Under the pieces are notes generated by a model. That model was not told the origin of the DNA. It was given only the letters and a program-made list of their open reading frames with translations, and made no database searches. Both the position numbers and the translations under genes were made by a program. From Gammaproteobacteria bacterium (GTDB taxonomy: Bacteria; Pseudomonadota; Gammaproteobacteria; VBWC01), in contig VBWC01000010.1 in assembly GCA_006218035.1 (NCBI GenBank), positions 75,572 through 139,571 of the forward strand: DNA of 64,000 bases, in the 5' to 3' direction. Within the stretch, counting starts at the first letter, position 1. Every line of letters starts with the position of its first letter. Shown here piece after piece: positions 1 through 19,792 of this stretch.

Positions 1-457
1 CGCGCGCCGCTCCTGCCGGGTCCGCGACCAGAATATGGACCTGACTCCAGTCCAGATCCGCACCACGCACCGTGATCTGCTGAACCTGGCCCTCGTAACG
101 GCGGGTGGTTCCGGCTTCAAAGGGAATCAATCCAACGGCGGCGATATTTCTTGCCTGAACCTGCGGGGCCGGCGCCGTGGCCAGCCCTGAAAACTGCTGC
201 ATACCGCCACCCATCGCGTCTGGAGCGGTCCCGGTTTGCGGCCATGCGGCCCCGGCAACGGTGGGCTGCTGCGGATAAGGTGCCTGGGGCGCGTCTACCG
301 GACCGGCGTCTTGAACCACGTGCGCCAGCCGATGCCCGACCCCGTTGCGACCGCCCTGATGCTGGCGGTCCCAGAAATTATCCGGCAGCAGGGCTCCGAT
401 GATAAGCCCGATTATAAAAATAAGGCCAAGACTGGTGATCCACTGCTCCGGCTTCAT
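1..457 (-). CDS. mamS: MamS-like magnetosome protein (partial; ORF runs off window start, ~152 codons in window)
   Basis: Hand-translated minus-strand ORF starting ATG at 455-457: MKPEQWITSLGLIFIIGLIIGALLPDNFWDRQ... One N-terminal TM helix then a soluble domain. Sits immediately downstream of mamB as in canonical mamAB operons. Not in the supplied ORF track because there is no stop inside the window. Confidence 0.5.
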   Translation of the reverse strand, partial: MKPEQWITSLGLIFIIGLIIGALLPDNFWDRQHQGGRNGVGHRLAHVVQDAGPVDAPQAPYPQQPTVAGAAWPQTGTAPDAMGGGMQQFSGLATAPAPQVQARNIAAVGLIPFEAGTTRRYEGQVQQITVRGADLDWSQVHILVADPAGAAR

Positions 458-503
458 CTCTCTACAACCGCACGTCGTTATACGCGGACGATACTCGCTG
501 GCG

Positions 504-1436
504 TCATTCGGCCATCGCAGGCACGGACGCCTTGCGACGGAAACTCCGCTGCGGCTTCTTGCCTGCCTCGACCGGTGTCACCGAAACGATAACGTCGCGC
601 ACGTGGGGAACCTCATCGAATATCCGCTGCCGGATCTCCGCCGCTATCCGGTCGCTTTCGCTGACCTTGATGCCGCGGTTAATATAGAGATTGATATCAA
701 GATGGGTGTCCTCACCGACATTCCGCCCCCTGAGATAGCAGACACCGTCAACCTTCGGATGCTCCTTGGCAATGCGATAGACGTCCTTGAGCACGTCGAT
801 ATCGACCGAGGAATCCATCAATCCCTTCACGGCATCCATATTAAGCTCGATGCCGATCTTGGCGACCAGAATGCCGACGCCAATCGCCGCAATCTCATCG
901 GCGATCGGAAATCCCGAGACCGCGAACACGATCCCGATCAACACGGCTACCGAGGAAATCGCATCGGAACGATTATCCCAGGCGTTTGCGATGATCGCCG
1001 GGCTGTTGTTCTCCCTGCCTACGCAACCCTGGTAACGAAACATCAACTCATTCACCAGCACCGATACGCCGGCGCCGAGCATCGCAAAAGCGTTGGGGGA
1101 CGAGAGATTGCCGATAATAATCGCGTGCAGCGATTCGTACATGATGTACAGCGCGCCGAAAAACAGGATCAGCCCGACAATCGACGACGAAATGTACTGG
1201 ATATTTCCATAACCGTAGGGGTGATCCTCGTCCGGGGGTCGCGACGACAGCTTCAGGCTGAATAACGTTACCGAGGTTGCCACGACGTCAGCGCCCGAAT
1301 GAACGGCATCTGCCACCAGGGCCGCGCTGCCGGTAATGATTCCCATGGCGCCCTTGTAAAACACCAGGCCGATGTTGACGAATAACGCCCACCACACGAC
1401 CTCGTCCCGGCATAGCTTGCAACGTTCGTATCTCAT
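504..1436 (-). CDS. mamB: Magnetosome cation diffusion facilitator MamB (CDF family Fe transporter)
   Basis: 310 aa. The N-terminus MRYERCKLCRDEVVWW, the HSGADVV motif and the NSPAIIANAWDNRSDAISS block closely match my recollection of Magnetospirillum MamB (MKFENCRDCREEVVWW...). CDF TM domain plus C-terminal domain. ATG start overlaps the mamR stop. Confidence 0.9.
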   Translation of the reverse strand: MRYERCKLCRDEVVWWALFVNIGLVFYKGAMGIITGSAALVADAVHSGADVVATSVTLFSLKLSSRPPDEDHPYGYGNIQYISSSIVGLILFFGALYIMYESLHAIIIGNLSSPNAFAMLGAGVSVLVNELMFRYQGCVGRENNSPAIIANAWDNRSDAISSVAVLIGIVFAVSGFPIADEIAAIGVGILVAKIGIELNMDAVKGLMDSSVDIDVLKDVYRIAKEHPKVDGVCYLRGRNVGEDTHLDINLYINRGIKVSESDRIAAEIRQRIFDEVPHVRDVIVSVTPVEAGKKPQRSFRRKASVPAMAE

Positions 1437-1684
1437 TTGTGCAAATATTCCAGTATCGCCTGCCCGGGAACCCGATAGTTCCCACCCACCTGCTTGCCAC
1501 GCATTTCTCCTGCGCGCAGCAACCTGATGACACTACGCCGGTCGGTATTCAGGAATCGCGCAACATCGGCCGTGTTATAAATTCTGTGCGGCTTGATCTC
1601 GCGCGTCGACAGGTCATGCAAATCCTTGACCGCGACGATCATCGACAGCACCGCGCCGGCGCGCACCAGGGCTGTCCAGATCAT
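1433..1684 (-). CDS. mamR: MamR-like small magnetosome protein (predicted HTH/DNA-binding-like fold)
   Basis: 83 aa small basic protein between mamQ and mamB, with 4-nt overlaps to both neighbours (ATGA). Position and size match MamR. Confidence 0.6.
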   Translation of the reverse strand: MIWTALVRAGAVLSMIVAVKDLHDLSTREIKPHRIYNTADVARFLNTDRRSVIRLLRAGEMRGKQVGGNYRVPGQAILEYLHK

Positions 1685-2526
1685 TTTGTTATCCCCGGCG
1701 TACCAGGTATCAATTGCCTGTATAGCTCGGGCTCGAGGACCGGATTATCCGAGCCTCCGAACGACATATGAACATAATCCATACGCGAGAAACCCGTGAC
1801 GTCGGCCAGCATCTTCCAGGGGAAACGGCTGATTTCCTGGTTATACATACGGAGTGCTTCGTGATACTGGACCGTTCTCAGCGCAATGCGATCCTCCATC
1901 TCGACCAGAGAATCCATCATGTGTTTGTATGTTTCGGATGACTTGATATTCGGATATTGCTCAACGACCGCCAACAACCGGCCGATCGAAGATTCCATCC
2001 CGCCGCTACCGGCCAGCGCCTTTTCCATGGACTCCGCGAAGCCTTTATCTATCGACGGCAACCCCTGAGCCGCGGCCGCGCCGGCACCGTCCGCTCCAGC
2101 GAACTGTTTCAACAGATCGGTCTTCGCGTCGTCCGGGATCTTCGAGTTCTTGATAATCTCCGCACGCATCTTCGATGTCGTCGAAAACACGTCATGCTCG
2201 AGTTCGGCGTGACTCAACGTAAGCTTGACAAGGTTACCGAAAAGATTCGCGCGGCGTTGATACGCAGCATCCATATTGTATTTCTTCGAAATCGAGTCCT
2301 CTCGCAGCTTGATAAAGTGATTGAACTTGAGCGCCATGATCGCCATGGTCAACACCAGCCCCGCCACGGTGATCCAGAGCATCACCCTGAGATTACGCAC
2401 CCGGGTGACTACCGCCGGCGGGTTCAGCTCGTCGTGATAGAGCTCGCGCAGTAACGCGCCGGGCTGCTGGATGCGCCGGAACTCGGCGTTATCCAGTTCA
2501 TCGTAACTGTCAAATGATTGAGGCAT
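1681..2526 (-). CDS. mamQ: MamQ, LemA-family magnetosome membrane protein
   Basis: 281 aa. N-terminal TM helix then a LemA-like coiled domain. Located between mamA and mamR as in Magnetospirillum. Confidence 0.75.
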   Translation of the reverse strand: MPQSFDSYDELDNAEFRRIQQPGALLRELYHDELNPPAVVTRVRNLRVMLWITVAGLVLTMAIMALKFNHFIKLREDSISKKYNMDAAYQRRANLFGNLVKLTLSHAELEHDVFSTTSKMRAEIIKNSKIPDDAKTDLLKQFAGADGAGAAAAQGLPSIDKGFAESMEKALAGSGGMESSIGRLLAVVEQYPNIKSSETYKHMMDSLVEMEDRIALRTVQYHEALRMYNQEISRFPWKMLADVTGFSRMDYVHMSFGGSDNPVLEPELYRQLIPGTPGITK

Positions 2527-2571
2527 ACACTATCACCGCCAGTAATGTATCAGATGAGCCCAGTTTAGCGA

Positions 2572-3222
2572 CTACTTCGCCGCCGTTTCCTCAAGTTCAT
2601 TCGCGCGCTTGTAATGCTCTACGGCAGTCTCGCGATTACCCTGCAGCTCATAGGCGAAACCGATCGCGCGATGCAACTTGGATTCATTCGGTCGCAGCTC
2701 GAGCGCTGCCTTGAAGCACTCGATCGCCTTGTCATGCTGCTTCAGGTGATCATAGGCGACACCCAGTTTGTATTTCAGATTGAAATTCTCCGGATTCCGC
2801 TCGCTGGCCAGCTCCAGCAGGGAAACCGCCTTGTCGAACTGTTCGAGCTGTGTGTAGGCAATACCCAGCACCGACGCGATGCGGACGGAATCCGGGTGCG
2901 TCACCTGAGCCTCCTCCAGCAGCGCGACCCCGTCTTCGATTTGACCCGTTTTGAGATAGCTCATGCCCAGATACAGCGTGATTTCCGGATCTTCCGGGTC
3001 CTCCTGATGCAGCGTCGCCAGCAATGGCAAGGCCTTCGCATAGGCCTTCTTCTTGGCGTAGGCAAGACCTTTATTGCGGTAAAAATTGGCGCGCGTGTTC
3101 TCGTCTATGGTAAACAGGGAGTGAAACCCCGAGATCATGCCATTAGCCACCCGCTTTGCAACGTTGGCGCTCGCCACTGCGTACAATTCCACCGTGTCAC
3201 CAATGTTCATTCGCTGAGTCAT
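2572..3222 (-). CDS. mamA: MamA, TPR-repeat magnetosome-associated protein
   Basis: 216 aa composed of TPR repeats (LGMSYLKTGQ, LGIAYTQLEQFDKA, YKLGVAYDHLKQHDKAIECF). Size and position (after mamP, before mamQ) match MamA. GGAGG SD upstream of the ATG. Confidence 0.8.
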   Translation of the reverse strand: MTQRMNIGDTVELYAVASANVAKRVANGMISGFHSLFTIDENTRANFYRNKGLAYAKKKAYAKALPLLATLHQEDPEDPEITLYLGMSYLKTGQIEDGVALLEEAQVTHPDSVRIASVLGIAYTQLEQFDKAVSLLELASERNPENFNLKYKLGVAYDHLKQHDKAIECFKAALELRPNESKLHRAIGFAYELQGNRETAVEHYKRANELEETAAK

Positions 3223-3380
3223 TACGTCCTACCTCCAACAGGTAAATTTTTATCAGTTTCGTTCACAACCGCCGACCCGGACTCCGACCGCTGCTTTGCT
3301 ATCGGAGCATCCGAATCCCACCTTATCGATCCTCGACATATCATTCCGTGCGTCCCTCTCGTAAACACCTGTCAATCGTC

Positions 3381-4400
3381 CTATAAACGCAGCTTGATAA
3401 TGTGACACGCGATACACGGCCCGCGGTCCTGATGCGGTTGCTGCTTGTGATCCGCCTGCGCCTGGGTAATCGGCGGCGGATTCATCGTAACCATATCCGG
3501 GTCCGGCGTCAGCTCCCAGCCGGTACCAATCGCATGACAGTTGGTGCAGGGGCCACGATCCGGATGCGGCCGCTGAGCGCCCGGCATAATCATCCCCGCG
3601 CCTTCCAGTTGAGCAAACCCGAGTTCCGCATCGGTACGCAGCGTCAGAGACATACCGCGCATTTGGTAACGCCCCGTGGCGGCATCCATCACATTCGTCT
3701 TGCGCAACACCGTCATTGACGACTCCTGCAGGGTCTTGACGGTTTTGGTTGCCGCCTGGAACTCCTCCAGTGTCGGCACCGCGATGTTGTTGACTTGAGT
3801 AATCACGTCGCCACCCAGTAGACCCGACATCGACGCTTCCATCGTTACCTGGCCGACCAGTATGCCGAGAAGACCGGAGGGAAACCGGAGTTTGGCCCGC
3901 ATTTCACTATCGAGCCGACGCACATCCATGCCCATCCAGTGCGCCTCGTCCACCGCCATGTTTTTCGGAATAAAGTTTGGCGGAACCTCAGGGGCAAATT
4001 CGTTGCCCGGCGGCGGCGACCCGGCCACGGTGGGCTGAACTGGGTCCACCGCAACACCGTTCATTCCCATGTCGGTCGTGTTGGCGATCGCGACAAATTG
4101 CGGGCCGCCCTGTTGCGGCGCCCCAAACATTGCCTGCACTGCAGCCGGGTTGCCGGCGGGATCGAGCTGCGCGGCATTCATCGGGTTCATGTTCTGTAGA
4201 TTGGCAATCGCACCGGCATCGATCGGGACACCTGGCGCCGGAAAGTTCCCGACAGCGGTGCCCGGTATCGGCGTGCCATCCGCCTGCAATGCGGTGTTCG
4301 ACGACGACCGCGTCACGAAATTATCGCCATACAACGCGAACATCACGGTCACCACCAATATGATCAGAACTACGCCAGGAAAGAAGCCGTCGAATTTCAT
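3381..4400 (-). CDS. mamP: MamP, PDZ plus double magnetochrome (CXXCH) c-type cytochrome
   Basis: 339 aa. N-terminal TM helix. Two CXXCH heme motifs near the C-terminus (GPCTNCHAIGTGW and GPCIACHIIKLRL), typical of magnetochrome domains. Long Pro/Ala/Gly-rich linker. Confidence 0.8.
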   Translation of the reverse strand: MKFDGFFPGVVLIILVVTVMFALYGDNFVTRSSSNTALQADGTPIPGTAVGNFPAPGVPIDAGAIANLQNMNPMNAAQLDPAGNPAAVQAMFGAPQQGGPQFVAIANTTDMGMNGVAVDPVQPTVAGSPPPGNEFAPEVPPNFIPKNMAVDEAHWMGMDVRRLDSEMRAKLRFPSGLLGILVGQVTMEASMSGLLGGDVITQVNNIAVPTLEEFQAATKTVKTLQESSMTVLRKTNVMDAATGRYQMRGMSLTLRTDAELGFAQLEGAGMIMPGAQRPHPDRGPCTNCHAIGTGWELTPDPDMVTMNPPPITQAQADHKQQPHQDRGPCIACHIIKLRL

Positions 4401-4423
4401 CTTTACACATCATTTCCAATAGT

Positions 4424-6457
4424 TCATGGACGGAAGAAAAGCATTTTGACCGCGATCGCCAACATGATGGCCATGTAGAGCCACTTCAACGCCACGATCG
4501 GCAACACCTTCATCAATTTAGCGCCGAGGATGCCACCGAAATACGCGCCCGGGATCATGATCAACGCGAGTGTAATAGGTGTCTGCCACTCGATCAGGCC
4601 GGTGCTGATGCCGTGCGAAAATGCCACGATGGCGCCGCCGACCGAGGCCCAGAATACCAGCACGGAGCTGTTCGCGATCGCGTTACGCAGAGGCACTTTC
4701 CCGAGATATCGCTGCAATGGCACCTCGACCACGCCACCGCTGATTCCCAGAATACCGCTGATCAGGCCCATCGGCAGTCCCAGCGCCGCATGCTTCGTTG
4801 CGTTTTCCGGTGTGCCGATGAACGATACCTGCTCATCCTGGTCGCCATTCCCCGTTGCCAGCAGATCGTCCATGATTTCGTCATCGGAGGCGCGCCGCGC
4901 ATCACTCGGGTCCTTGATCAGGATCTGCTCCTGATCGTCGACAAAAATCTCCATGAACGCCTTGATCGCCATCAGCAATGCAAAAATGCCGAGCATGTAG
5001 TAAATCACCACTTCGCCGACCGAATTGCCGATGAAATACCCGACGACGACACCCACCACCGCCCATGGCGCAAGCGCGCGAACGTTATCCCACATCACCA
5101 GGCCGGCATTATGGTTACGATAGGCTGACGCGCCGTATACAAAGATATTGGTCAGATAGGCTACCGGGCGGATCAGGTACATACCGTAACCGAAAAATAC
5201 CATCATGCCGGCGACTTGAATGACCCCGCCACCCATGGTCATCATGCCACCGGTGATACCGGCAACTAACGCCAGCAATGCCAGCCCGAGGATGTTCTCG
5301 AGCGGATGTCCGCCAATGCGCGGCCCGAGCAGATGTTCCGGATCGAGAATCCCCGCGGAAATACCTGGATCCAGCATCATCGCCGCCGCCGCGGGATTGC
5401 CCCCCATGGCGCCGGCCATCGGCGGCACACCGACATTATTGCCCGCGATGTTCATGCCCAGCAGCGGACCGGAACTACCGGAAACCTGCGCCTGCGCCTT
5501 GGCCCACCACGCGGCGGACCCGCCGGTCATGCCGCCGGAACCTGCCGGCGACACCATGCCAGCCACTTGCACCACGGACGGCGCATTACTGGCGCCCGTC
5601 CCGGCCGCCTGCGGACCCGGCGCGCGCGCTGGCGTAACCGTGCCTTTGCCGAGCTTGAATTTAAGCACATCCTGGAAATGCGCCATGATCACATGCGACG
5701 GCACGGCGAATCCTTCAACAGTGCCGTTGGGACGAGTCACGGCAATACTGATACCGACCAGTTCACCACGTCCGTTTACCAGCGGCCCGCCGGATTGCTC
5801 CCAGGTGTAAATGGCGTTGGTGCCGAGCAAGTGCGACACACGGATCGTCTCCGGCTGGATCGTCATATTGATACTGGTCAGCGACCCGGGTCTGACCAGC
5901 GCATTCCCCTGAATGCCCTGACCAAAACCGAATACCGGATCGCCGGTCTGCAACACCTGCGTATCCGCAAGCGTCAGATAGAGGAAGCGATCCTGCGTCA
6001 GCATCTTCAGTAAAACGATGTCATGATCGGGCATCGATTTGACGATCGTTGCGTCATACCGCCTGACCCCCTGGGGCGTTTTTACCATCACATTGATGGC
6101 GGGCAGTTCCACTACCGAGTGCAACGTAGTCAGTACATAACCGCCTGAACCGACGATCGCGCCCGATGCCAGCGTGCCGGAATTGATGCCGGGTCCGCTG
6201 ATGCCGACCACCGCCGGTGGAATCGCATCGTAGAGAAACTGGATGTCGGGATTGGCTGATTCCTGGTAAAAACCGCGAATGGCGAATTCCTCCAGTTCCA
6301 CCTCGCCTTCGTTCATCGCGCCCCGTATCAGGTAGAACCCCCAGATAAATGTCAGTATCAACGCCGCGGTAAGCGCGAAGGCCGGGATACGCCACGGGCG
6401 TTTACAGAACAACACCGTGTTCGGGACGAGTTGAGCGGCTTTGTGTCCAGGTTGCAT
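4424..6457 (-). CDS. mamO: MamO, trypsin-like protease domain fused to TauE/SafE-like transporter domain
   Basis: 677 aa. The N-terminal part has an HtrA/trypsin-like fold (LTTLHSVV, DHDIVLLKM, EQSGGPLVNG). The C-terminal half is polytopic with TauE-like repeats. Position between mamN and mamP. No SD seen at the listed start, so the true start may be internal. Confidence 0.8.
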   Translation of the reverse strand: MQPGHKAAQLVPNTVLFCKRPWRIPAFALTAALILTFIWGFYLIRGAMNEGEVELEEFAIRGFYQESANPDIQFLYDAIPPAVVGISGPGINSGTLASGAIVGSGGYVLTTLHSVVELPAINVMVKTPQGVRRYDATIVKSMPDHDIVLLKMLTQDRFLYLTLADTQVLQTGDPVFGFGQGIQGNALVRPGSLTSINMTIQPETIRVSHLLGTNAIYTWEQSGGPLVNGRGELVGISIAVTRPNGTVEGFAVPSHVIMAHFQDVLKFKLGKGTVTPARAPGPQAAGTGASNAPSVVQVAGMVSPAGSGGMTGGSAAWWAKAQAQVSGSSGPLLGMNIAGNNVGVPPMAGAMGGNPAAAAMMLDPGISAGILDPEHLLGPRIGGHPLENILGLALLALVAGITGGMMTMGGGVIQVAGMMVFFGYGMYLIRPVAYLTNIFVYGASAYRNHNAGLVMWDNVRALAPWAVVGVVVGYFIGNSVGEVVIYYMLGIFALLMAIKAFMEIFVDDQEQILIKDPSDARRASDDEIMDDLLATGNGDQDEQVSFIGTPENATKHAALGLPMGLISGILGISGGVVEVPLQRYLGKVPLRNAIANSSVLVFWASVGGAIVAFSHGISTGLIEWQTPITLALIMIPGAYFGGILGAKLMKVLPIVALKWLYMAIMLAIAVKMLFFRP

Positions 6458-6500
6458 ACTTTTATAATCCTGCTAAAACCTCAAAAAACAGCCGAGTTCA

Positions 6501-7832
6501 TCAGCGCGCTGTGATCATGACGTAGATCGTGGACAGCACCAGAAACAAAAACATGATCGGCAATCCCCAGCGCAAATAACTCTTGAAATCGAGTGTCGCA
6601 TTGCCGGACATCGTATCGCGCATTTCGGGGTGTGCGGCGACAAAACGTTCGAGATGCGAGGCCGCCACCGACCCCGCCGTCGCGCCGGTCAGCGACGCAG
6701 ACGACCCTGCCAGTATCCCCAGCGACAAGGCCCACCAGACGACCGGATCACCGGCCGAGAGATACATGTCACCGGCCACGGGTACCAGAAACGCTGTCGC
6801 CGCACCGGCATTCAAAAATATCGCCGCCACCGCCGCCAGCCACATCAACACAATCAATTGCAGCACTTCATAGCCACCGCTTACACCATAGATAAACCAC
6901 TCGAATCCCCGCAGCACACCGGCCGCCGCCAGGCCACCAACCATGACAAACAGGCCGGTGAAAAATAATATGTCGCCACCACCACAGGCGGAAAACAGTG
7001 AATCTCGATCAAAGCGTCCAAGCGACAGCGCCAGAAATCCGGTCCACAACGCTATCCACGCCGGGCTGAGACCAAAACGCTCCGCCACCAAAAACCCGAC
7101 CAGCGCAGCCGCCAGCAGCACCAACCCGACCTTCAGCAAGTACGGTTCATACGGTTGCTCGCGGACCGCGTCTCGCATCGCCGCCACGAGTTTGCCATTA
7201 CCTGGAGAGCGCCCGCCATCGATATCGATGTCGTTGCGTCGCCACTGAAAATACGCAAACATCGCCGCCAGCAGAATCAGGCACGGCACCATCATGCCGC
7301 TGATGAAATCGATGAAATGCAAATGAGCGGCCGACGCTATGATCATATTGGGAAAATCGCCGATCATTGTGGAAGCGCCACCAAGATTCGACGCGACAAC
7401 CTCTGCAATCAGTATCGGGATCGGATTGATTTCTATCTGGTGACAGATTGCCAGGGTCACCGGCAGGATTACCACCATCGCCGAGAGATTATTAACCAGC
7501 ATCGAAAGCCCGTATGTCCCGAGCGAGAAGATCACCAGCACCCACCAGCCGTTGCCCATCGAATGGACAGCCATACGTTTGGCGACCACGCCAAACACGC
7601 CTGATTTAGCGAGCAACGCCGACACCAGAGACATGCCAAATATCAGCGCCAGCGTTTCGAAATAAATAGCATCAATCGCCTGCGCAAGCGGGTAGATGCC
7701 GGACACAAGACCGAACAGCAACATTACACCGGCGCCGGCCATGACCGCCGTTTTCCGCTCGACCATACCGCGGAATATCAGCGTAAACACGCCGCCAAAT
7801 ATGGCGATGGCGATTAACGCATTGGCGCTCAT
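6501..7832 (-). CDS. mamN: MamN, NhaD/ArsB-type ion transporter family permease
   Basis: 443 aa polytopic permease of the CitMHS/ArsB fold. Start ATG overlaps the mamM stop by 1 nt. Position between mamM and mamO. Confidence 0.75.
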   Translation of the reverse strand: MSANALIAIAIFGGVFTLIFRGMVERKTAVMAGAGVMLLFGLVSGIYPLAQAIDAIYFETLALIFGMSLVSALLAKSGVFGVVAKRMAVHSMGNGWWVLVIFSLGTYGLSMLVNNLSAMVVILPVTLAICHQIEINPIPILIAEVVASNLGGASTMIGDFPNMIIASAAHLHFIDFISGMMVPCLILLAAMFAYFQWRRNDIDIDGGRSPGNGKLVAAMRDAVREQPYEPYLLKVGLVLLAAALVGFLVAERFGLSPAWIALWTGFLALSLGRFDRDSLFSACGGGDILFFTGLFVMVGGLAAAGVLRGFEWFIYGVSGGYEVLQLIVLMWLAAVAAIFLNAGAATAFLVPVAGDMYLSAGDPVVWWALSLGILAGSSASLTGATAGSVAASHLERFVAAHPEMRDTMSGNATLDFKSYLRWGLPIMFLFLVLSTIYVMITAR

Positions 7833-8866
7833 CAGTCCAGTACGCTCTCCAGATCTAGCGACAGATCCTTGCTGGGATTCGTTCCCGCAGCGGTGCTGCA
7901 GCCTTTCGACTTGCTGCAGCCCGCCGCCTGCTCGCAGCCAGCCGCGGCCTCCGAAGGAATCGCCGCCGCTTCCTGCACGACGCTCCGCACGGTTTCTGAC
8001 TGAAACTTGATCTGCACCAGCCCGAGATTGGGGATGCGCCGGCTCATATTGTGATGTACGGCGTCGGTAATACTGTGCGCTTCCTCAACGGTAATGTCAG
8101 GATCGACGCGCAATACGACCTCGGCCATGAGTTCCTGACCAATATATCGCGTGCGCAGGTGGTTGACCTCGTGCACACCTTTCGTCGCCTTCGCGATCTC
8201 GACGATCTTTTCCCGCATCGGCTTCGACACCGAACGGTCCATCAGCCCGCGATATGAATCCCGGAAAACCTCTCCGCCAAGGAACATCAGGTGCATAGTT
8301 TCGAACAATGCGACCAGCGTATCGATCCACGGCATACCCAAATAGTTCGCGCCGAGAATACCGACCGCCACCGCCGCCGACGAAGTCGCATCAGCGTGAT
8401 GGTGATGCGACAGGGTGCGTACCATCGGACTGTTGGCTTCGATGGCGACGCAGCGCGAATAGTAATACATGACCACATTGACGGCGATCGAGATCAACGC
8501 CGCCCATAACGCGATCAGGTGCGGTGTACGATGTGTGCTGCTGTCCAGCAGAAGTTGCAAGGCGTGGACAAAAAGCAGCGCGGTTATAAACAGAAACACG
8601 ACGCTGATCATCAGCGACAGAATGAATTCGATTTTTCCGTGACCATACGGATGATCACGATCCAGCGGCTGCCCGGAAACATTGACGCCGACGATCACCA
8701 GTATCGATGTCACGACATCCTTGGCCGAATACATCGCGTCGGCCAGCAGTGCGCTCGAGCCTGCGATCAGTCCGACGAAGCTCTTCATCAGCATCAGCGC
8801 CGAGTTGGTCACCAGACCGACCCAGCCGACTGATCTAAAACACCACAGACACTCTTTATATCTCAT
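7832..8866 (-). CDS. mamM: Magnetosome cation diffusion facilitator MamM
   Basis: 344 aa. N-terminus MRYKECLWCFRSVGWVGL and the blocks LADAMYSAKDV, DHPYGHGKIEFILS, TPHLIALWAALISI and NSPMVRTLSHHHHADATSS match my recollection of MamM (MRKSGCAVCSRSIGWVGL...). CDF family. Confidence 0.9.
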   Translation of the reverse strand: MRYKECLWCFRSVGWVGLVTNSALMLMKSFVGLIAGSSALLADAMYSAKDVVTSILVIVGVNVSGQPLDRDHPYGHGKIEFILSLMISVVFLFITALLFVHALQLLLDSSTHRTPHLIALWAALISIAVNVVMYYYSRCVAIEANSPMVRTLSHHHHADATSSAAVAVGILGANYLGMPWIDTLVALFETMHLMFLGGEVFRDSYRGLMDRSVSKPMREKIVEIAKATKGVHEVNHLRTRYIGQELMAEVVLRVDPDITVEEAHSITDAVHHNMSRRIPNLGLVQIKFQSETVRSVVQEAAAIPSEAAAGCEQAAGCSKSKGCSTAAGTNPSKDLSLDLESVLD

Positions 8867-9024
8867 CGCGACGTATCGCTCCGACTGCGAACACTCATTC
8901 AGCTACCAACAAACACCGGATCGTTGCATCTACGGTATTTGCAAAACGCAAAACACCGATCCAGCGAGCAACTGATCCCGTCCAACGCCGTCGTTATCCT
9001 GCCAACCGTTCCGCGGACAATGCG

Positions 9025-9309
9025 CTATTCTCGCTTGCGAGCCAATTCTTTTGGCCCCATGGTCGCGCGCATCAATTCCCTGTTGCGACCCGCACTCTTG
9101 CGGCGGCCTCCTTTGGCTGCCCTGAATACCACCGCCAGCAATGCGAACGCATAACCGACGATGAATGCCATCACCACAACAACAATCAATGGCACTTGAA
9201 CCGGCGGCCCGACCAATAAATACACCGGCACCATATCCATATTTTGTGACGCAAAGATGCCGATCGCGACAATGACTAAAAAGTAAAAAATTACCCTTAA
9301 AATGAACAT
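9025..9309 (-). CDS. mamL: MamL-like small two-TM magnetosome protein with basic C-terminal tail
   Basis: Track ORF 9025..9393, but the likely start is the internal Met (MFILRVIFYFLVIVAIG...) at 9307-9309, giving ~94 aa. Two hydrophobic helices then a KGGRRKSAGRNR basic tail. Lies between mamK and mamM. Confidence 0.6.
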   Translation of the reverse strand: MFILRVIFYFLVIVAIGIFASQNMDMVPVYLLVGPPVQVPLIVVVVMAFIVGYAFALLAVVFRAAKGGRRKSAGRNRELMRATMGPKELARKRE

Positions 9310-9761
9310 TACCGTGTTGAGCGCGCGCGTATCTTTTCTGTCACGGGTTAGTCTGTCAGTGCTGCCAGCGTCCGTCAACAACAACAGCAACAAAAAGAAA
9401 TACTTAATAACAACGATTGTTATTTATTTCTGTTCACTCAACACGAAACTGCGCGGACTGCCAGGTGAGAACTACCGGAGAGAAACGACGGGCTACAATG
9501 CATCGGCGTGGCAAACAATGAATTTACATTTTGTGCGCGACACACCACATGCAAACGTAATGAGAATAGTTTCAATAAACGAGAACTCGTTAAGGGTTTG
9601 GTGCTACAAGAATCTGCACGACAATACAAACCAGCGACGGTGATTTCACGGCAGCGGCAATGACCGTGATATGGGCACGCGTATTCGCGCCATTAACGGT
9701 TACAGCGCGTCGTTATCGCCGGTCCGGCGGGATATCTCCGGACAAATCGCAGTACGCACGG

Positions 9762-10811
9762 CTATTCCGGCGCACCGATCATCTCGCCCAGCTGGTTCCA
9801 GTACATCGGCGGGAGATCCATCGCCAGTTTGATGGCGCCTTCGGCGGCCGCAAAATTCGCATCGGCCACTTTTACCACGCGGGTATCGCCATACTCCGCC
9901 AGTTGATCGGCAATCATTTCGTCAAGGCCGTGGATCAAGGAACCACCACCCGCCAAAATAATGTTCTGCAAAACTGTGCCCTGCACCGACGGATCAAACG
10001 TACGGAGTAGCGCCGTCACGTTCTCAATGATATCGGGCACGATCGACTCGCAAACGCTGCGGACCTGATCCTGCACCGAATAGACTACCGGCCGGCCGTC
10101 CGCCCGGAAATTGACGTTAATGGTACCTGCCGGCGAATCACCGACGAAGGAATGTTGTTCCTTGATATGGGAGGCAATCAGGTTGGTCAACTGGATATCG
10201 GGATAGGCCTCCTGCAACTCCGCCTTCAACTTGCCATCCAGATAATCGCCCGCCTTATGCAGCGTGATCTGGTCTTCCGGTCCCGGCATCATGCCTTTCA
10301 GCGCCGCGATGTCGATAGTCCCGGCACCGATATCAATAACGATGGCATTCAGTAGAATATCGAGCCCGTAGGCGACCATAAACGGCTCAGAGACTACCAG
10401 CGCGGTATCCATGACTTCGTGCGCCATGCTCAGCAGCAACGTCTTGTCCGCTGCCGAGGCACGGGCGGGAATACCGATGACACCCGCAATTTCGTCGCCG
10501 TCTTCGGGCTGCGCCAGCTGGAGCACGTAGTCGATCAGGTGTCTGGCGACGTCCAGGTCGCGATCGCTCAATTCCTTTAACACGCCCTCGCCCAGCGGGT
10601 AACGCAGGTCCAGATAGGAATGCTTGTCCAGGGCCTCCTGCCCGACCGCATATGGTTTGCCCAGCAGCTTCACGCCAATCAGATCCTTGGGGTAACCCAC
10701 CACCGATCTCACCATCTCCCTGGTGCCACGACTGGTCATAATCGCGGTACGTGATGTTCCGAGATCAATCCCCAGCAGCAATTGATTATCGTTTTTATGC
10801 GCGGCGTTCAT
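9762..10811 (-). CDS. mamK: MamK, actin-like magnetosome filament protein
   Basis: 349 aa. Actin/MreB-fold phosphate motifs (LLLGIDLGTSRT, ILAGGGSLIHGL). Position after mamE and the mamJ-position gene. Confidence 0.85.
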   Translation of the reverse strand: MNAAHKNDNQLLLGIDLGTSRTAIMTSRGTREMVRSVVGYPKDLIGVKLLGKPYAVGQEALDKHSYLDLRYPLGEGVLKELSDRDLDVARHLIDYVLQLAQPEDGDEIAGVIGIPARASAADKTLLLSMAHEVMDTALVVSEPFMVAYGLDILLNAIVIDIGAGTIDIAALKGMMPGPEDQITLHKAGDYLDGKLKAELQEAYPDIQLTNLIASHIKEQHSFVGDSPAGTINVNFRADGRPVVYSVQDQVRSVCESIVPDIIENVTALLRTFDPSVQGTVLQNIILAGGGSLIHGLDEMIADQLAEYGDTRVVKVADANFAAAEGAIKLAMDLPPMYWNQLGEMIGAPE

Positions 10812-10870
10812 GTGTTATGTCCCCTGCTATCGGTTAACGTAATACCCATTCGCGATCGAGTTGTCGACGC

Positions 10871-12454
10871 CTACTCAGGCGTCGTCGATTTTTTTTCCTT
10901 GAAGAATCCACTGACCAATCTCGCGCCATCTTTCGCGCCCAACGCGATTCCGGATACTGACTGCCTGCCAACGTTCACTATCCGTCCGACTCCGTTGCCC
11001 AGCGCCTTGAAAACGCCTCTCCCCAAGCCCTCGATCGGTATCGTTTTCTCCAGTTTTTTTTTCCGCGGCACCTCACTCGAGGAGGATGTTGATGCCGTTG
11101 CCCGGCTGGCTGCTACGGTTGCCTGCGGCGTTGCACCGGCATCGAATGGCGCGCGCGGCTGACTGCCAACCTCCGCAGTACCGGTAACGACGGGGCGCTT
11201 CGGTATCGGCGCCCGTTGCTTCGGCCGAAATCGCGGTGATGGCTCCTCGGTGGCGCGGGAAACCGCACGTTGCCGCTCCGCCAGCCGCATCTTGAGACGG
11301 TCGGTATCCGAGATTCCGCCGGTATCCGGCTTCTTGACCACGAACTGACTTTCGGCAACCGCGCCGGCGAGCTCGCGTATCGCCTCGCCCAGTTCGTCGC
11401 GCTGAACCTCGCGAGCGGGACGGCTGACGGGCGAGGGCCGCGGCGCGAACGATGGGCGTTCCGGTTTGGGAGCGTCCACCGCTGGACGCGACGGGGCCTG
11501 AGCCTGCACATCCGGCGTCCGGCGCAACGGCGGCGGTGAAACCGACGCGTCCTGCGCCATCATCGGAACCGGGGCGGCGCCGCGCCGCGGTTCTGCCTCG
11601 CGTTTCGTGCTGCTCGCCGGTGCCGCAACCGGCGCGGGCTGTGTCACCGTCGCCTGTGGAACTGTTACGTGTGGCGCTGTCGCCCGCGACGCGATTACCT
11701 GCGGAGCCGCGCGGGACACGCCTGTGCTTTCCGGCATCGAGCGGCGCTTGAACGCCGGCGTCGGCCGGGTCGCCCACGGCGACGCCGCCATCAAATCGGT
11801 AAACTCCCCGGACACAGCCGATTTGTCACCAACGGGACGACGCCCATGATCGCCGCGCGTATCGTGCGCGGCGGCGGACGCCGCGCCCGTTCTCAGTCGG
11901 CTTGCCCACGGTGATGCATTCAGTAACTCGCCCAGACTCTGGCCGGTGGACACACTGGTTTCCGCCGGCATACGCTTGCTGTCAGGCTGCTCTTTCTGCA
12001 CTGCAGACGTCGTAGCAGCCTTTGTTGTAGATGCTGCGGCCGATGTTTTCGCGGTCTTTTTCTTTAGCGTCGCCGGACTGGGCTCGCTACCACCATGATT
12101 TGCAGGTTTTTTTGGCGCAGGCACAGCGGGGGGCGCGCTACGTTTTGGGTTGGCCCATGGCGAAGCGTCGAACACACTTACCCAGGATCCCTCAGGTTCC
12201 GCGACACCGGTCCGTTTTACCGTCGCTCTGCGATGAGCGCTGGATTGGATAGCAGAGCCCGTATTCTTCAGGGTCGCGGACGGCTTTCGGCTGACGGATG
12301 CCTTCGCAACGGCGCCCTTGGCAGCGACTGGCTTCGCCTTTTTCGTCGACGTACGAGCAACCGTCTTTTTGCGAGCGGCCTTCGGAGCTGTCTTTTTCGT
12401 AGCCTTGACTGTTCTTTTCTTCGCGGATGCGGCCCGCGACCTTTTTTTAGTCAC
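10871..12454 (-). CDS. Low-complexity Lys/Ala/Pro-rich protein in the mamJ position (putative MamJ analogue)
   Basis: 527 aa, GTG start. N-terminal ~60 aa extremely basic (MTKKRSRAASAKKRTVKATKKTAPKAARKK...). Then an Ala/Pro/Ser/Arg-rich region with three ASPWA motifs. Globular-looking C-terminus (GRGVFKALGNGVGRIVNVGRQSV). Sits between mamE and mamK exactly where mamJ lies in Magnetospirillum, but is basic rather than acidic. Confidence 0.45.
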   Translation of the reverse strand: MTKKRSRAASAKKRTVKATKKTAPKAARKKTVARTSTKKAKPVAAKGAVAKASVSRKPSATLKNTGSAIQSSAHRRATVKRTGVAEPEGSWVSVFDASPWANPKRSAPPAVPAPKKPANHGGSEPSPATLKKKTAKTSAAASTTKAATTSAVQKEQPDSKRMPAETSVSTGQSLGELLNASPWASRLRTGAASAAAHDTRGDHGRRPVGDKSAVSGEFTDLMAASPWATRPTPAFKRRSMPESTGVSRAAPQVIASRATAPHVTVPQATVTQPAPVAAPASSTKREAEPRRGAAPVPMMAQDASVSPPPLRRTPDVQAQAPSRPAVDAPKPERPSFAPRPSPVSRPAREVQRDELGEAIRELAGAVAESQFVVKKPDTGGISDTDRLKMRLAERQRAVSRATEEPSPRFRPKQRAPIPKRPVVTGTAEVGSQPRAPFDAGATPQATVAASRATASTSSSSEVPRKKKLEKTIPIEGLGRGVFKALGNGVGRIVNVGRQSVSGIALGAKDGARLVSGFFKEKKSTTPE

Positions 12455-12523
12455 CCCTACCTCCCGCGAACCTGGTTCGATTAGCTTATTTTCGGCTATG
12501 GAGATTTAGAACCGATTTATACA

Positions 12524-15223
12524 TCAAAGCGTGACAAAAATCTCGCGATTGTTGCGGTTAATCTTGAACAACACGTTGGGTTCGTTCGCCGCATTGTTTA
12601 TCGCGCGGTCCAACAACTCCGGCGTCCCTACCGGCTGATTGTTGATCAAAATAACCACATCCCGCTTCTGTATGCCGGCCTGCATGGCGCGCGAACCGCG
12701 GCGGACCTCCTTGACCTGTGCCCCCATCAGCGGCCCGACTCCCGGCAGTCCGCCGACCGCACCGGCCACCGGCTGCCGAACAACCTTAAGCTCCATCCCT
12801 AACCAGTTAACTTCGTTTCTAACGCCCCGGCCCGGTAGCGGCGCTGGCACCTGGTCGCCGTTCGCCACAATCATATCCAGCCGAACATTCTGACCCGCTC
12901 CGTTCCGATCGATATTCAGCCGCGGCCGATCGCCGGTCTGCAGCGCGCTCAGTTCACGCGCCAGCTGGTCCGGAGTACGAACCCGTTTTCCGTCGATTTT
13001 CAGGATGATATCACCCGCCACAAGGCCGGACGTTTCGGCCAGCGAACGCGGCACGACCGAACTGACAAACACGCCCTTGCCTACCGGCTGATTTATTTGC
13101 GTCGCGAGAAACGGCGATACCGGCATTACCGTTGCACCGAGTATCACACGCGCCTCCGGTTCCGCGGCGGCCAGAGTATCGACAGGCATTCCCGGCATCT
13201 GCGCCATGCCTGCCTGTCCCATCGGGACCGGCGGCGCCATCATCATGCCCTGCCCGTTGTTAGCTGGCATCATCGCGTTCGGCGCCACGCCACGGTTTTC
13301 GGGGCGCGGGTCCTGATTGACGTTCATGCCCGCCACGCCCTGATTCATCCCCGCCATACCGGGCATCCCGCCATTCCGGTTCTCGAGACGGCGATCCTGG
13401 TTGATGTTCATGCCAATCATGTCCTGGCCGGCCATACCCTGGCCCATGCCCATCATGCCGGGCGCCATGGCGCCATTCTGGTTTTCAAGACGGCGGTCCT
13501 GATTGACGTTCATTGCCAACGTCGCCGGCGGCCGCGCGAACTGATATTGCGGCATCGCGATCGCCATCGCGTTAACGCCGCCCGCATTAATACCCTGCTG
13601 CGCCGGGAGCATCTGGTGACAGATCGTGCAGTTCATCCGTTCACGGCCATCCGTATGTGGCGCTGGTGTACCCGCGATAATCGCCGGGCCAGGATCCGGA
13701 CGGATTTGCTGCGCAATCTGCTGCATTACCGGCTGCGTACCCATCATCATGCCGATCTGGTTCATACCTTGCTGCGCCGGGAGCATCTGGTGACAGATGG
13801 TGCAGTTCATCCGCTCACGGCCATCCGTATGCGGCGCCGGTGTGCCGGCGATGATTGCCGGGCCCGGGTCTGGCTGTATTTGCCGGGCGATCTGTTGCAT
13901 CATCGGCTGCGTCGCAACCACATTGGCGCCGGCTTGCTGGCCGCCAACGATCTGATGACACATCTGGCAATCCATACGCTCGCGGCCATCCGTATGCGGC
14001 GACCTTGTTCCGGCCGCAAGCGTCGGACCGACCTGGTTGCCCGCCGGTTGCATCGCGATCTGCTGCATCGCCACCAGCTGCGCCATCGGCTGCTGATTCG
14101 CCATCGCGTCCGGAAATACCGCTGGCAACGCCACCTCGGTCTGCACAAACTGCCTGACCCGGTTCGATGGAATCGCGAAACCGACACCGGAGAATGCGCC
14201 GGTCGGCGTGTATATCGCAGTGTTGATACCTATCACTTCGCCCTGATCATTCACCAACGGGCCGCCGGAGTTGCCCTGATTCACGGCGGCATCCGTCTGA
14301 ATCAAATCACCGTGGGTGACCCCCTCGATGGTCAGCGATTTACGCAGACCCGAAACAATGCCGCGGCTGACCGTCTGATCGAGACCAAACGGGCTGCCGA
14401 ACGCCAGCACGGATGACGCCACCGGAATCTTCGTGCTGTCGCCCAGCTTCGCGGCGCGCAACGGCAACCGGGAATTTATCTTCAGCAGCGCGAGATCGAT
14501 ACCTTCGTCCAGCCTGACCATCTGCGCGAGATAACGCTGCGTACCCGAGTCATGGAATACGGTCACATAGATTGCCGCGGCACCACGCACCACGTGAAAA
14601 TTCGTAATGACATAACCGTCCGAGTGGACGATGACGCCGGAGCCGATACTTTCGTTGCCGGTGCCGGTTGCCGGGCTGGTAAACTGCACGCCCGCCGATG
14701 CCGCACCAGGTGCAACGGTTTCCTGTGCCGCCACCGACGCCGAGCGCGTGACGTTGATATTCACGACACTGAAACGCATCTGTTCCGCCACAGGCGCAAA
14801 CCGGCTCGCGGCCAGCATCATCGGATCACCGGGCGGAATGCCGACCGGCATACTGGCCGCCGGCGCCAGGGCCTCGGGGGTCCAGCGCGGCTGCATTTGC
14901 TGTTGCGGGAAATTGCCACCGCCATTCGGCATCGGCTGCGCGTTGGCAAACGCGGGCATCGGGTCACCCATGCCCGGCATCGAATTCATCGCGTTGGCGG
15001 GCATCTGGTTTTGCATTGCGAACGCCGGCATCGCCGGCTGAGCACCGGCTACATTGTTAGCCGCCGGTCTGGTTGACAGATCGACATGTATGCCCTTGTC
15101 GAAGAAATTAACGTACCAGTAGCTGCCGAGCACGATGAGAATCGCGGCTGCCCCGAGGACGTAGAGGTAACGGCGCGTTTCCAGGCCGCACCGGTCGGAG
15201 ATACCGAAATTAAGCATTCCCAT
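12524..15223 (-). CDS. mamE: MamE, HtrA-like serine protease with PDZ domains and three magnetochrome CXXCH motifs
   Basis: 899 aa. N-terminal TM helix. Trypsin-like catalytic motifs (VITNFHVV, DLALLKI, GNSGGPLVND). Three CXXCH motifs (MDCQMCHQIVGG and two copies of MNCTICHQMLPAQQ). Two C-terminal PDZ-like regions. Internal tandem repeats. Confidence 0.85.
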   Translation of the reverse strand: MGMLNFGISDRCGLETRRYLYVLGAAAILIVLGSYWYVNFFDKGIHVDLSTRPAANNVAGAQPAMPAFAMQNQMPANAMNSMPGMGDPMPAFANAQPMPNGGGNFPQQQMQPRWTPEALAPAASMPVGIPPGDPMMLAASRFAPVAEQMRFSVVNINVTRSASVAAQETVAPGAASAGVQFTSPATGTGNESIGSGVIVHSDGYVITNFHVVRGAAAIYVTVFHDSGTQRYLAQMVRLDEGIDLALLKINSRLPLRAAKLGDSTKIPVASSVLAFGSPFGLDQTVSRGIVSGLRKSLTIEGVTHGDLIQTDAAVNQGNSGGPLVNDQGEVIGINTAIYTPTGAFSGVGFAIPSNRVRQFVQTEVALPAVFPDAMANQQPMAQLVAMQQIAMQPAGNQVGPTLAAGTRSPHTDGRERMDCQMCHQIVGGQQAGANVVATQPMMQQIARQIQPDPGPAIIAGTPAPHTDGRERMNCTICHQMLPAQQGMNQIGMMMGTQPVMQQIAQQIRPDPGPAIIAGTPAPHTDGRERMNCTICHQMLPAQQGINAGGVNAMAIAMPQYQFARPPATLAMNVNQDRRLENQNGAMAPGMMGMGQGMAGQDMIGMNINQDRRLENRNGGMPGMAGMNQGVAGMNVNQDPRPENRGVAPNAMMPANNGQGMMMAPPVPMGQAGMAQMPGMPVDTLAAAEPEARVILGATVMPVSPFLATQINQPVGKGVFVSSVVPRSLAETSGLVAGDIILKIDGKRVRTPDQLARELSALQTGDRPRLNIDRNGAGQNVRLDMIVANGDQVPAPLPGRGVRNEVNWLGMELKVVRQPVAGAVGGLPGVGPLMGAQVKEVRRGSRAMQAGIQKRDVVILINNQPVGTPELLDRAINNAANEPNVLFKINRNNREIFVTL

Positions 15224-15228
15224 CGGCG

Positions 15229-15432
15229 CTACTCTTTGTCGCTGACAAGATCATCGTCGATCTTTTTGCCGGTACGGAGCTGCGAAACACCCGCACCGAG
15301 CGCGACAACACCGAAGACAATCAGGACGAGTGGCGCCAGTCCACGCAGCAACTCGGCAAACGACCACCACCATACCGTCAGACCCCATAAACCGAACGAT
15401 ACGCCAAGCAATCCGATGATGATGTTATTCAT
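15229..15432 (-). CDS. mamI: MamI, small two-TM magnetosome membrane protein
   Basis: Track ORF 15229..15483, but an internal Met at 15430-15432 (MNNIIIGLLGVSFGLWGLTVWWWSFAELLRGLAP...) has a GGAG SD 9 nt upstream and gives ~67 aa. The WWW/FLRG two-TM signature resembles MamI. First gene of the minus-strand operon in this window. Confidence 0.65.
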   Translation of the reverse strand: MNNIIIGLLGVSFGLWGLTVWWWSFAELLRGLAPLVLIVFGVVALGAGVSQLRTGKKIDDDLVSDKE

Positions 15433-15483
15433 GGTTGTTTCTCCAAATCCTGTGAGGCCCTGGAGAGACTGCGAGACAGCCAA

Positions 15484-16201
15484 GGCGTGGCCATACGGTA
15501 CGGCGATGAATTTTCGGTAGTGGCATGGTTTATCGTGTCTTTACCGTCGCGGTTACTCGACCTGTACGCGGACGGCAGAAACCACTCGATCTGCCCGATC
15601 GCAACGCGGCGAAAACTGCTTCAGCACTCTCCAACCGATTTTTGTATTTTGTATACGTTAAGTCACGAGTTCGTTCCATCATAAGCACATTCCACGGGCC
15701 TGTAAACAACGCAAGCTCGCGCAATTTCTAAAGAAAAGTGCGAACCATTTTCAATCGCAATTAACTTTCGTCACGGCGGGTCGTTTGACGGATGACGGAA
15801 TTCCAATCGATCACCGTTCGCCCGCAATCCGCCTGCCAAGACGGCAGGAAAATTGTGCCGGCGTCGATGCGACACGCGGCGCCAATAACCTTGCGATCGG
15901 TTGGTTTGAAGAAACCCACTGTTTTGGTAACCTATGCCGGCAACTCTTGATAGATGCATGAAACAGGCGTAGCCGCAATCACTGCAATCAGGATCCCGCA
16001 AGCGGTCGGGCCGCACCGCGGAACACGCAAGTATGGGCATCGTGACGTTCTCAATGTCTCTGCCGCACCCCCGCCGGGAAACGACGCGGTACGCGTGTGG
16101 CGATAATCACAGGCGACCCCGTTGATCAAGAACCATGGTTATCCCCGGACAACACGAACGGTGCCGTACGTTGACGGCGCATTCACCAGGAGGTCGGCGA
16201 T
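15484..16201. promoter_or_regulatory. Divergent intergenic region between mamI (minus) and mamA-like (plus); presumed mamAB-operon promoter region
   Basis: 718-bp non-coding gap with AT-richer stretches (15640-15770) in an otherwise GC-rich context. Strong SD (caggagg) before the 16202 ATG. Confidence 0.4.
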
Positions 16202-16891: not shown

Positions 16892-16955
16892 TCCCCGCTA
16901 TAATCCGCCTGTTCTCGGTCTCTGCACTATTCCGGAGGTAACGAATTTGACTCAC

Positions 16956-19780: not shown

Positions 19781-19792
19781 ACAGGTGTCAAT

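Follow-up and report, generated by a model that had tools for sequence, protein, structure and literature searches.

Could a bacterium of aquifers, from an order proposed to consist of nitrate-reducing iron oxidisers, also build magnetosomes? The question is raised by a 64,000-nt stretch of contig VBWC01000010.1 (hereafter the window), part of a gammaproteobacterial metagenome-assembled genome (MAG). An earlier note, made from the letters and their translations alone, had recognized a mamAB-type magnetosome operon on the minus strand of window positions 1-15483, and this identification held up when it was confronted with hidden Markov models (HMMs), with synteny and with residue motifs. Judged by its genes, we consider it probable that this segment is an intact mamAB cluster of the alpha/gamma type on the chromosome of an uncultured groundwater gammaproteobacterium of order Ga0077554, and that the organism would most likely be a magnetite-producing, magnetotactic one.

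Mam proteins were assigned with the NCBIfam Mam models and their curated cut-offs (six equivalog models and the MamK subfamily model); scores are given as bits over cut-off. The other tests were Pfam, sequence matches to PDB chains, tblastn, the ratio of nonsynonymous to synonymous divergence (dN/dS), tetranucleotide usage and G+C at third codon positions (GC3). Selection and divergence figures are pairwise, between the window genome and the New Zealand groundwater MAG nzgw581. The comparison loci were those of Magnetospira sp. QH-2 (FO538765.1), the Alphaproteobacteria MAG GCA_039908285.1 and the gammaproteobacterium SHHR-1.

Gene content and order of the cluster

The minus-strand genes form a colinear and uninterrupted row, mamI-E-orf527-K-L-M-N-O-P-A-Q-R-B-S, in which 13 genes are complete (Table 1). 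Except for its 'X', taken up below, the gene set announced in the earlier note stands, with mamS only partly inside the window. The missing part of mamS is present in an ENA contig that is 100% identical across window positions 1-20811. There MamS reaches its full 219 residues, carries the Pfam domain MamS_MamX and shows 34-37% identity to MamS of QH-2 and of the alphaproteobacterial MAG. After 20 bp it is followed by mamT, which encodes a 182-aa magnetochrome (MCR) protein, in agreement with the prediction that mamT would lie past coordinate 1.

Seven products score above the cut-off of the matching Mam model: MamB, MamM, MamK, MamO, MamN, MamA and MamI. For MamQ, MamP, MamE and MamR a Mam model is the best match, yet the score stays below the cut-off. 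The Mam products that do not reach their cut-offs are syntenic orthologues of QH-2 genes. MamR has such orthologues both in QH-2 and in the alphaproteobacterial MAG (46-48% identity) and is 100% identical at the amino-acid level in nzgw581. MamL is assigned through its position, its LapA_dom match and its identity of about 40-42% to the proteins at the same position in QH-2 (41%, E 8e-19) and in the alphaproteobacterial MAG (42%, E 2e-14). The core set mamI, E, K, L, M, O, P, A, Q and B is therewith found in a single cluster, and these are the genes described as essential in Magnetospirillum.

Residue motifs of the Mam proteins

The paired CDF transporters MamB and MamM, whose previously quoted N-termini MRYERCKLCRDEVVWW and MRYKECLWCFRSVGWVGL are both present, are distinct from FieF, as the generic FieF model gives them only 116-131 bits against a cut-off of 420. 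The two proteins share 32% identity with each other; MamB is 70% identical to its QH-2 counterpart and has a dN/dS of 0.045. The magnetochrome character of MamE and MamP, likewise proposed before, is confirmed by Pfam MCR matches and by three and two CXXCH motifs, respectively. MamE combines the Pfam domains Trypsin, MCR and PDZ, with GNSGGP at residue 317, CXXCH at residues 419, 474 and 532, and long linkers rich in M, G, Q, P and N. An internal tandem duplication in mamE (13590-14014, about 79% nucleotide identity) repeats one magnetochrome unit and gives rise to two near-identical ...HTDGRERMNCTICHQMLPAQQG... segments, for three CXXCH in total. In MamP the MCR match falls into two stretches, with CTNCH at residue 285 and CIACH at residue 329, and the protein aligns to the solved MamP structure (PDB 4jj0, 4e-44) with both motifs in register. 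Catalytic and haem-binding motifs are conserved.

The protease domain of MamO matches PDB 5hma and 5hm9 at about 1e-61, with roughly 55-60% of the aligned positions identical; we take these chains ('MamO protease domain') to be from Magnetospirillum magneticum AMB-1. Near residue 220 the present protein reads EQSGGPL, with serine where the solved chain has threonine (EQTGGPL), at what is presumably the canonical HtrA nucleophile position. MamQ is 49% identical to MamQ of QH-2, MamA has a dN/dS of 0.017, and the nearest MamK in the protein database, outside its own 90%-identity cluster, is 63% identical. The MamL-like protein is hydrophobic over its N-terminal two-thirds, ends in a basic C-terminal tail and has a dN/dS of 0.077. 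The gap that separates its gene from mamK is 90-95% identical in nzgw581 and is a possible site of an internal promoter or regulatory element. At the head of the row, an alternative TTG start at 15483 would give MamI a length of 84 aa; the protein is 57% identical to MamI of QH-2. The number of promoter-like sites such as the one upstream of mamI is not above chance in the region.

The protein at the MamJ position

The gene between mamE and mamK, orf527, had been called mamX. We reject this name: neither Pfam nor NCBIfam, MamX included, holds a family that matches its product. The 527-aa protein has an isoelectric point (pI) of 11.4 and a low-complexity composition in which A, P, S, R and K are abundant. 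Its N-terminus is rich in lysine, ASPWA occurs three times, and the Gly-rich C-terminus is highly conserved. That orf527 is a real gene follows from its dN/dS of 0.31 against nzgw581 and from its gapped positions, which sum to a multiple of three. Among 5.8 billion clustered proteins its only relatives are the nzgw581 orthologue (83% identity) and one protein from a JGI metagenome (62% by BLASTP over 76% of the query, 59% by full-length tblastn). A full HMMER scan of 1.84 billion representatives with the C-terminal 130 residues added only one further weak match. The protein evolves much faster than its neighbour, as the same JGI relative retains 59% identity in orf527 and 97% in MamK.

A MamJ assignment was also considered. 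The position agrees, but the protein is basic and not acidic, whereas the proteins at the same position have a pI of 4.05 in QH-2 and 4.75 in SHHR-1. With these two it weakly shares an (S/N)PWA motif and the Gly-rich C-terminus (E 4e-4 and 1.5e-6). Because the database searches returned its own lineage and one weak match only, both the MamJ and the MamX naming were abandoned. We treat the orf527 product as a charge-reversed, fast-evolving, lineage-restricted and putatively disordered protein at the MamJ position, and not as a member of the MamJ family.

Relation to known magnetosome clusters

In Magnetospirillum gryphiswaldense and M. magneticum the mamAB genes run mamH-I-E-J-K-L-M-N-O-P-A-Q-R-B-S-T-U. 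The genes that the window shares with them stand in the same order; the differences are that mamH is not found, mamJ is not recognizable and mamU is not seen in the 64 kb, and that MamO carries the serine noted above. Genes mamJ, U, V and W have been reported in Magnetospirillum only, and mamR is common to Alpha- and Gammaproteobacteria (PMC9840458).

The order from mamI to mamT is identical to that of Magnetospira sp. QH-2 (I-E-x-K-L-M-N-O-P-A-Q-R-B-S-T), and in both a protein without a name lies between mamE and mamK. Both clusters have three CXXCH in MamE, and both have mamN and mamR. The protein identities, in contrast, are 34-70%, and the host class differs. Upstream of mamI, QH-2 and SHHR-1 have mmsF and mamH, whereas here mamI comes first and faces a MamA-like paralogue. 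The alphaproteobacterial MAG matches the order from mamK to mamT, with identities of 37-62%.

Magnetotactic Gammaproteobacteria are known from saline habitats (BW-2, SS-5, FZSR-1/2 and SHHR-1) and from freshwater (GRS-1/CCP3 of order CAIRSR01, and CCP4 of the Chromatiaceae). They resemble the present case in combining a gammaproteobacterial host with alpha-like mam genes, and Calvin-cycle autotrophy has been predicted for BW-2 and SS-5 (PMC9160268) and for the Lake Pavin gammaproteobacteria of CAIRSR01 and the Chromatiaceae (PMC11773610). The present host differs from them in its order, Ga0077554, and in its aquifer habitat. The SHHR-1 mamK locus reads mmsF-H-I-E-x-K-x-K2, followed by non-mam genes and thus with two mamK genes; here the one mamK belongs to a single long operon of the Magnetospira kind. 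Identities to SHHR-1 are 57% for MamK and 40% for MamE.

In a neighbour-joining tree of MamK the lineage branches close to the base of the alphaproteobacterial clade, but bootstrapping divides its support, with 46% for a grouping with other gammaproteobacterial sequences, 20% for a position as sister to all alphaproteobacterial ones and 23% for a nested position within them. A 60%-identical MamK that sometimes pairs with the lineage belongs to a sponge metagenome and to a cluster without mamN, and was set aside as not closely related. A scan of JGI metagenomes with MamB found only relatives of 61-68% identity.

The host lineage

Two independent submitters label the window genome and nzgw581 as Gammaproteobacteria (NCBI). 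Identical proteins are already in GenBank under 'MAG: Gammaproteobacteria bacterium' (locus tag FD165_; TND04356.1/KAF0191449.1) on a contig of up to 276,777 bp, where the mam genes bear generic product names such as 'Actin-like ATPase' and 'Co/Zn/Cd cation transporter'. The named relatives of the flanking glucan phosphorylase are gammaproteobacterial only (Ca. Tenderia electrophaga 75%, Methylococcus 74%, Sulfuricaulis 70%), and identity to gammaproteobacterial MAGs is 77-79%. On a 442-kb contig (JAHFRU010000001.1), nzgw581 carries the same cluster and flank with about 94% nucleotide identity over 20.8 kb. This MAG comes from New Zealand aquifers and is assigned to c_Gammaproteobacteria; o_Ga0077554; f_Ga007554. 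It reaches 97.5% completeness at 1.06% contamination, has a size of 3.15 Mb and a GC content of 59%, and its listed genes include napB and nirK (Mosley et al. 2022 supplement, PMC9562985). The labels, the glucan phosphorylase relatives and the classification of nzgw581 all agree with the earlier view that the host is not Magnetospirillum-like.

Corbera-Rubio et al. 2024 gave order Ga0077554 the name 'Candidatus Siderophiliales' and described 'Ca. Siderophilus nitratireducens' as a groundwater-derived, RuBisCO- and cyc2-bearing, nap-dependent putative nitrate-reducing iron oxidiser (PMC10993476). The RuBisCO arrangement had earlier been associated with sulfur oxidisers; this lineage is proposed to be an iron oxidiser instead. 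The window genome has in common with the Siderophiliales the order (by way of nzgw581), groundwater and RuBisCO autotrophy, and nzgw581 adds the listed nap-type nitrate reduction. Unlike in the published description, no cyc2 was found within the 64-kb window. The only cyc2 candidate with an N-terminal CXXCH (32445-33794, plus strand) reads as a spurious arginine-rich frame with no family match.

The paper naming the order makes no mention of magnetosome genes (PMC10993476), and nothing in the literature searched links Ga0077554 with such genes. Neither this MAG nor its order is mentioned in Uzun 2020, Lin 2020, the GdbMTB paper, Liu 2022, Mangin 2025, Goswami 2022 or Dziuba 2022, and the words groundwater and aquifer are absent from a review of magnetotactic bacterial ecology. 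With a GC content of 49%, the MAGs of Gammaproteobacteria in Uzun et al. belong to a different organism. What is new here seems to be the host, an aquifer order proposed as nitrate-reducing iron oxidisers, and not the kind of system.

Inheritance of the cluster

All mam genes can be aligned in frame with nzgw581 and have dN/dS values of 0.00-0.31, in the same range as the flanking genes. Synonymous divergence is no different between the mam genes (dS 0.10-0.29) and the ABC transporter genes next to them (0.16-0.23). JGI metagenome 3300039157 contains a third population, which is more divergent; on its contig Ga0418799_439025 orf527 is followed by mamK, and over the 163 N-terminal residues present there, MamK is 97% identical. 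The cluster is conserved under purifying selection in at least two and probably three populations.

The compositional deviation of the cluster from its flank is small. G+C is 57.2% in the cluster and 61.1% in the flank, and GC3 is 0.693 vs 0.751 (p = 0.001, 24 flanking genes). Tetranucleotide usage of the cluster correlates with that of the remaining window at r = 0.961, just below the 0.963-0.985 of equal-sized control segments. A comparison of composition, as the earlier note had proposed, gave two answers: GC3 is slightly lower, but the tetranucleotides are near-native. No tRNA gene and no Rfam match was found in the 64-kb window, and no integrase, transposase or mobile-element family among the window open reading frames (ORFs) scanned. 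With no such element found in these scans, with near-native tetranucleotide usage and with the same dS in mam genes and flank, a recent island is disfavoured, and nothing in these data would point to a recent insertion. An old foreign origin, in turn, is fitted by the alphaproteobacterial gene order and the slightly lower GC3. An ancient acquisition from alphaproteobacterial clusters, or else common ancestry with them, is probable, followed by vertical inheritance within this lineage under selection. Of the two possibilities raised at the outset, a novel lineage or an acquired island, the first gains from the unreported host order, and the second fits as an old event and not as a recent one.

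Alternative explanations

Several points weigh against a magnetotactic Ga0077554 bacterium. Magnetosome production is inferred from the genes. MamE, MamP, MamQ, MamR and MamL are below the curated cut-offs and hence divergent, and the MamK tree leaves the alphaproteobacterial vs gammaproteobacterial grouping undecided. The placement of the window genome in Ga0077554 draws on its near relative nzgw581 and not on marker genes of its own, the window holding no taxonomic marker genes. With MmsF and MamH of QH-2 and SHHR-1 as queries, tblastn found no homologue in the 64 kb; mamJ and mamU were not found in this window; and mms6, mamGFDC and mamXY did not turn up among the ORFs scanned, with no individual search made for them. 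Accessory genes and operons (mamH, mmsF/mms6, mamGFDC, mamXY) are not required for membership in the mamAB type, and accessory small proteins other than MmsF and MamH are too divergent to exclude.

The most serious alternative is a dormant cluster, acquired horizontally, with its genes intact but unexpressed and its host not magnetotactic. A complete cluster can indeed be silent, as in Rhodovastum atsumiense G2-11, where a compact alpha-type cluster resides in a host not known as magnetotactic (PMC9938234). The GC and GC3 values slightly under those of the flank, the undetected accessory genes, the lack of a known phenotype and a description of the order without magnetosomes (PMC10993476) would all suit such a case. 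We nevertheless regard dormancy as unlikely. In G2-11 the island is transcriptionally silent and its tetranucleotide signature deviates conspicuously, which was read as recent transfer (PMC9938234); here composition is near-native. All 13 complete genes, mamR and mamN among them, as well as the MamA paralogue, are under purifying selection between populations about 0.15 dS apart, and the third population keeps orf527-mamK with its highly similar MamK.

Far less probable is an artefact of assembly or binning, by which an alphaproteobacterial magnetotactic cluster was wrongly joined to a gammaproteobacterial contig. The closest named relatives of the Mam proteins are mostly Alphaproteobacteria, and the MamK of a Rhodospirillaceae MAG, likewise named 'Actin-like ATPase', may stem from the same study (unconfirmed). 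However, the junction of mamI, the MamA-like gene and the ABC transporter recurs in ENA k119 contigs, a 276-kb NCBI contig and the 442-kb New Zealand NODE contig. A chimera is unlikely because these are differently named assemblies from two studies. Furthermore, dS is uniform across the junction, as is tetranucleotide usage, and for every Mam protein the identity to the alphaproteobacterial orthologues compared is at most 70%.

The notion that ordinary CDF, HtrA, MreB, TPR and LemA paralogues, unrelated to magnetosomes, were clustered by chance is hardly credible: Pfam by itself gives only generic families for most of the proteins, but in the profile searches that had been suggested to expose such paralogues Mam-specific models pass their cut-offs and the generic FieF, DegP/DegQ and MreB models fall far under theirs on the same proteins, the magnetochrome domains are recognized, the MamO-specific trypsin-TauE fusion is present, and the row is colinear over 15 genes with that of a cultured magnetotactic bacterium (QH-2).

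Genes flanking the cluster

Table 1 Features of the window, with strand and supporting matches (scores as bits/cut-off)
Feature	Position	Strand	Evidence or remark
mamS, 5' part, 152/219 codons	1..457	-	gene runs past left window edge
mamB, CDF iron transporter / vesicle formation	504..1436	-	NCBIfam CDF_MamB 457/350 bits
mamR, small HTH protein	1433..1684	-	NCBIfam MamR 75.5/100 bits, below cut-off; Pfam HTH_17
mamQ, LemA-family membrane protein	1681..2526	-	NCBIfam MamQ 242.7/250 bits, below cut-off; Pfam LemA
mamA, TPR scaffold protein	2572..3222	-	NCBIfam MamA 228/200 bits
mamP, PDZ and two magnetochrome domains	3381..4400	-	NCBIfam MamP 284/300 bits, below cut-off; Pfam MCR
mamO, trypsin-like domain fused to TauE transporter domain	4424..6457	-	NCBIfam MamO 830/800 bits
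mamN, CitMHS-family transporter	6501..7832	-	NCBIfam MamN 560/500 bits
mamM, CDF transporter, MamB partner	7832..8866	-	NCBIfam CDF_MamM 444/350 bits
mamL-like, 94 aa	9025..9309	-	Pfam LapA_dom; NCBIfam MamL 18/100 bits; position
mamK/mamL gap, 452 bp	9310..9761	.	no credible ORF; G+C locally lower
mamK, actin-like filament protein	9762..10811	-	NCBIfam MamK 480/400 bits
orf527, MamJ position	10871..12454	-	no Pfam/NCBIfam family
mamE, HtrA protease, three CXXCH and PDZ domains	12524..15223	-	NCBIfam MamE 597/800 bits, below cut-off, best match
mamI, first operon gene, 67 aa from ATG	15229..15432	-	NCBIfam MamI 82/80 bits; Pfam MamI
sigma-70-like promoter match upstream of mamI (TTTACA-17-TATGAT)	15678..15706	-	consensus match only
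MamA-like TPR paralogue, divergently transcribed	16202..16891	+	NCBIfam MamA 183/200 bits, below cut-off
ABC importer, ferric-iron/SfuABC type (putative substrate)	16947..20863	+	binding protein, fused double permease, TOBE-domain ATPase
cbbR (minus) and presumed form IA cbbL-cbbS-cbbQ-cbbO (plus)	41475..47774	.	26-32 kb from magnetosome cluster

The MamA-like paralogue that faces mamI is 45% identical to MamA of the operon and is kept in nzgw581 with a dN/dS of 0.21. A ferric-type ABC importer (SfuABC/FbpABC-like) directly adjoins the magnetosome cluster, in the same arrangement as in nzgw581; its substrate is putative, and it could supply the cluster with iron. Further on, at 20906-22141, a 411-aa protein with neither a family match nor a haem motif looks porin-like from its sequence; its gene overlaps the end of a gene for a three-domain multicopper oxidase (20906-23459, minus strand). 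Such a pair of putative porin and multicopper oxidase may be relevant to the way in which a putative iron oxidiser oxidises metals.

A cbbLSQO locus had been described as the neighbour of the magnetosome genes. The locus is real, but it is not adjacent: the cbbL, S, Q and O genes lie at 42597-47774, 27 kb away, and the ferric-type importer, the multicopper oxidase, the glucan phosphorylase and copper efflux genes (CopA, CusCBA) stand in between. On family models, CbbR scores 299 bits and the RuBisCO large subunit 802 bits. CbbL scores highest against PDB 1svd (972 bits) and reaches 614 bits against 1bxn; we take the former to be the form IA chain of Halothiobacillus and the latter a form IC chain, as the tool output names neither organism nor form. 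CbbQ matches PDB 5c3c at 6e-144, CbbO is a NorD-like VWA-domain protein, and the small subunit gene cbbS is present. By these presumed reference chains, the locus encodes a RuBisCO of form IA; cbbQ and cbbO come directly after the genes for its two subunits, and cbbR is divergent, an arrangement that we take to be the one called 'IAq'.

Two further groups of genes concern metal transport. The copper-handling block (29044-40796, minus strand) encodes a small c-type cytochrome, the P-type ATPase CopA, proteins with a YHS domain and of the CMD family, and a CusA-CusB efflux system with a TolC-like protein. A 902-aa SERCA/PMR1-like P-type ATPase (51798-54506, plus strand) reaches 631 bits with the bacterial Ca-ATPase model, short of the cut-off. 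For the carbonate-forming magnetotactic Gammaproteobacteria no P-type Ca pump has been reported (Mangin et al. 2025).

Discussion

How the cluster might work can be outlined from the established genetics of Magnetospirillum, applied here by analogy. MamI, MamL, MamQ and MamB would draw vesicles from the inner membrane by invagination. The CDF pair MamB/MamM, together with MamN, would handle iron and protons, and MamO with the protease MamE would control maturation. The magnetochrome haems of MamP, MamE and MamT may set the Fe(II)/Fe(III) ratio required for magnetite. MamA would coat the organelle, MamK filaments would align the organelles, and MamR and MamS would tune crystal size. The acidic linker MamJ would be replaced by the lineage-specific, strongly basic and disordered orf527 product. 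By this analogy the cluster should direct at least basic magnetosome formation. A bolder proposal is that the Siderophiliales are genuine magnetite-producing magnetotactic bacteria, which would respire iron outside the cell and mineralise it inside, with the basic protein at the MamJ position taking part in chain organisation; this we offer tentatively, as a possibility somewhat short of probable.

Clusters of this type are a well-understood system, of which database mining has already yielded many examples (PMC7449369, PMC7602337), so that the cluster itself is not new biology; it is the host that is worth reporting. The combination of divergent proteins (at most 70% identity; 63% for MamK) with the Magnetospira gene order makes the locus a useful point in the history of transfer between Alpha- and Gammaproteobacteria. 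The orf527 product is a natural variant with which to test what a linker protein needs in order to work.

If the Siderophiliales are truly magnetotactic, they would represent an unrecognized magnetotactic lineage and habitat. Provided that the cells do make magnetosomes, magnetotactic iron oxidisers would be present in aquifers and in the iron filters used for drinking water. Such cells would bear on the origin of magnetite, as a possible biological source in groundwater iron filters, and a biogenic contribution to magnetite would be worth considering should the reactor genome of PMC10993476 also carry mam genes. They would also raise the question of why a bacterium of porous, dark and often anoxic media navigates magnetically.

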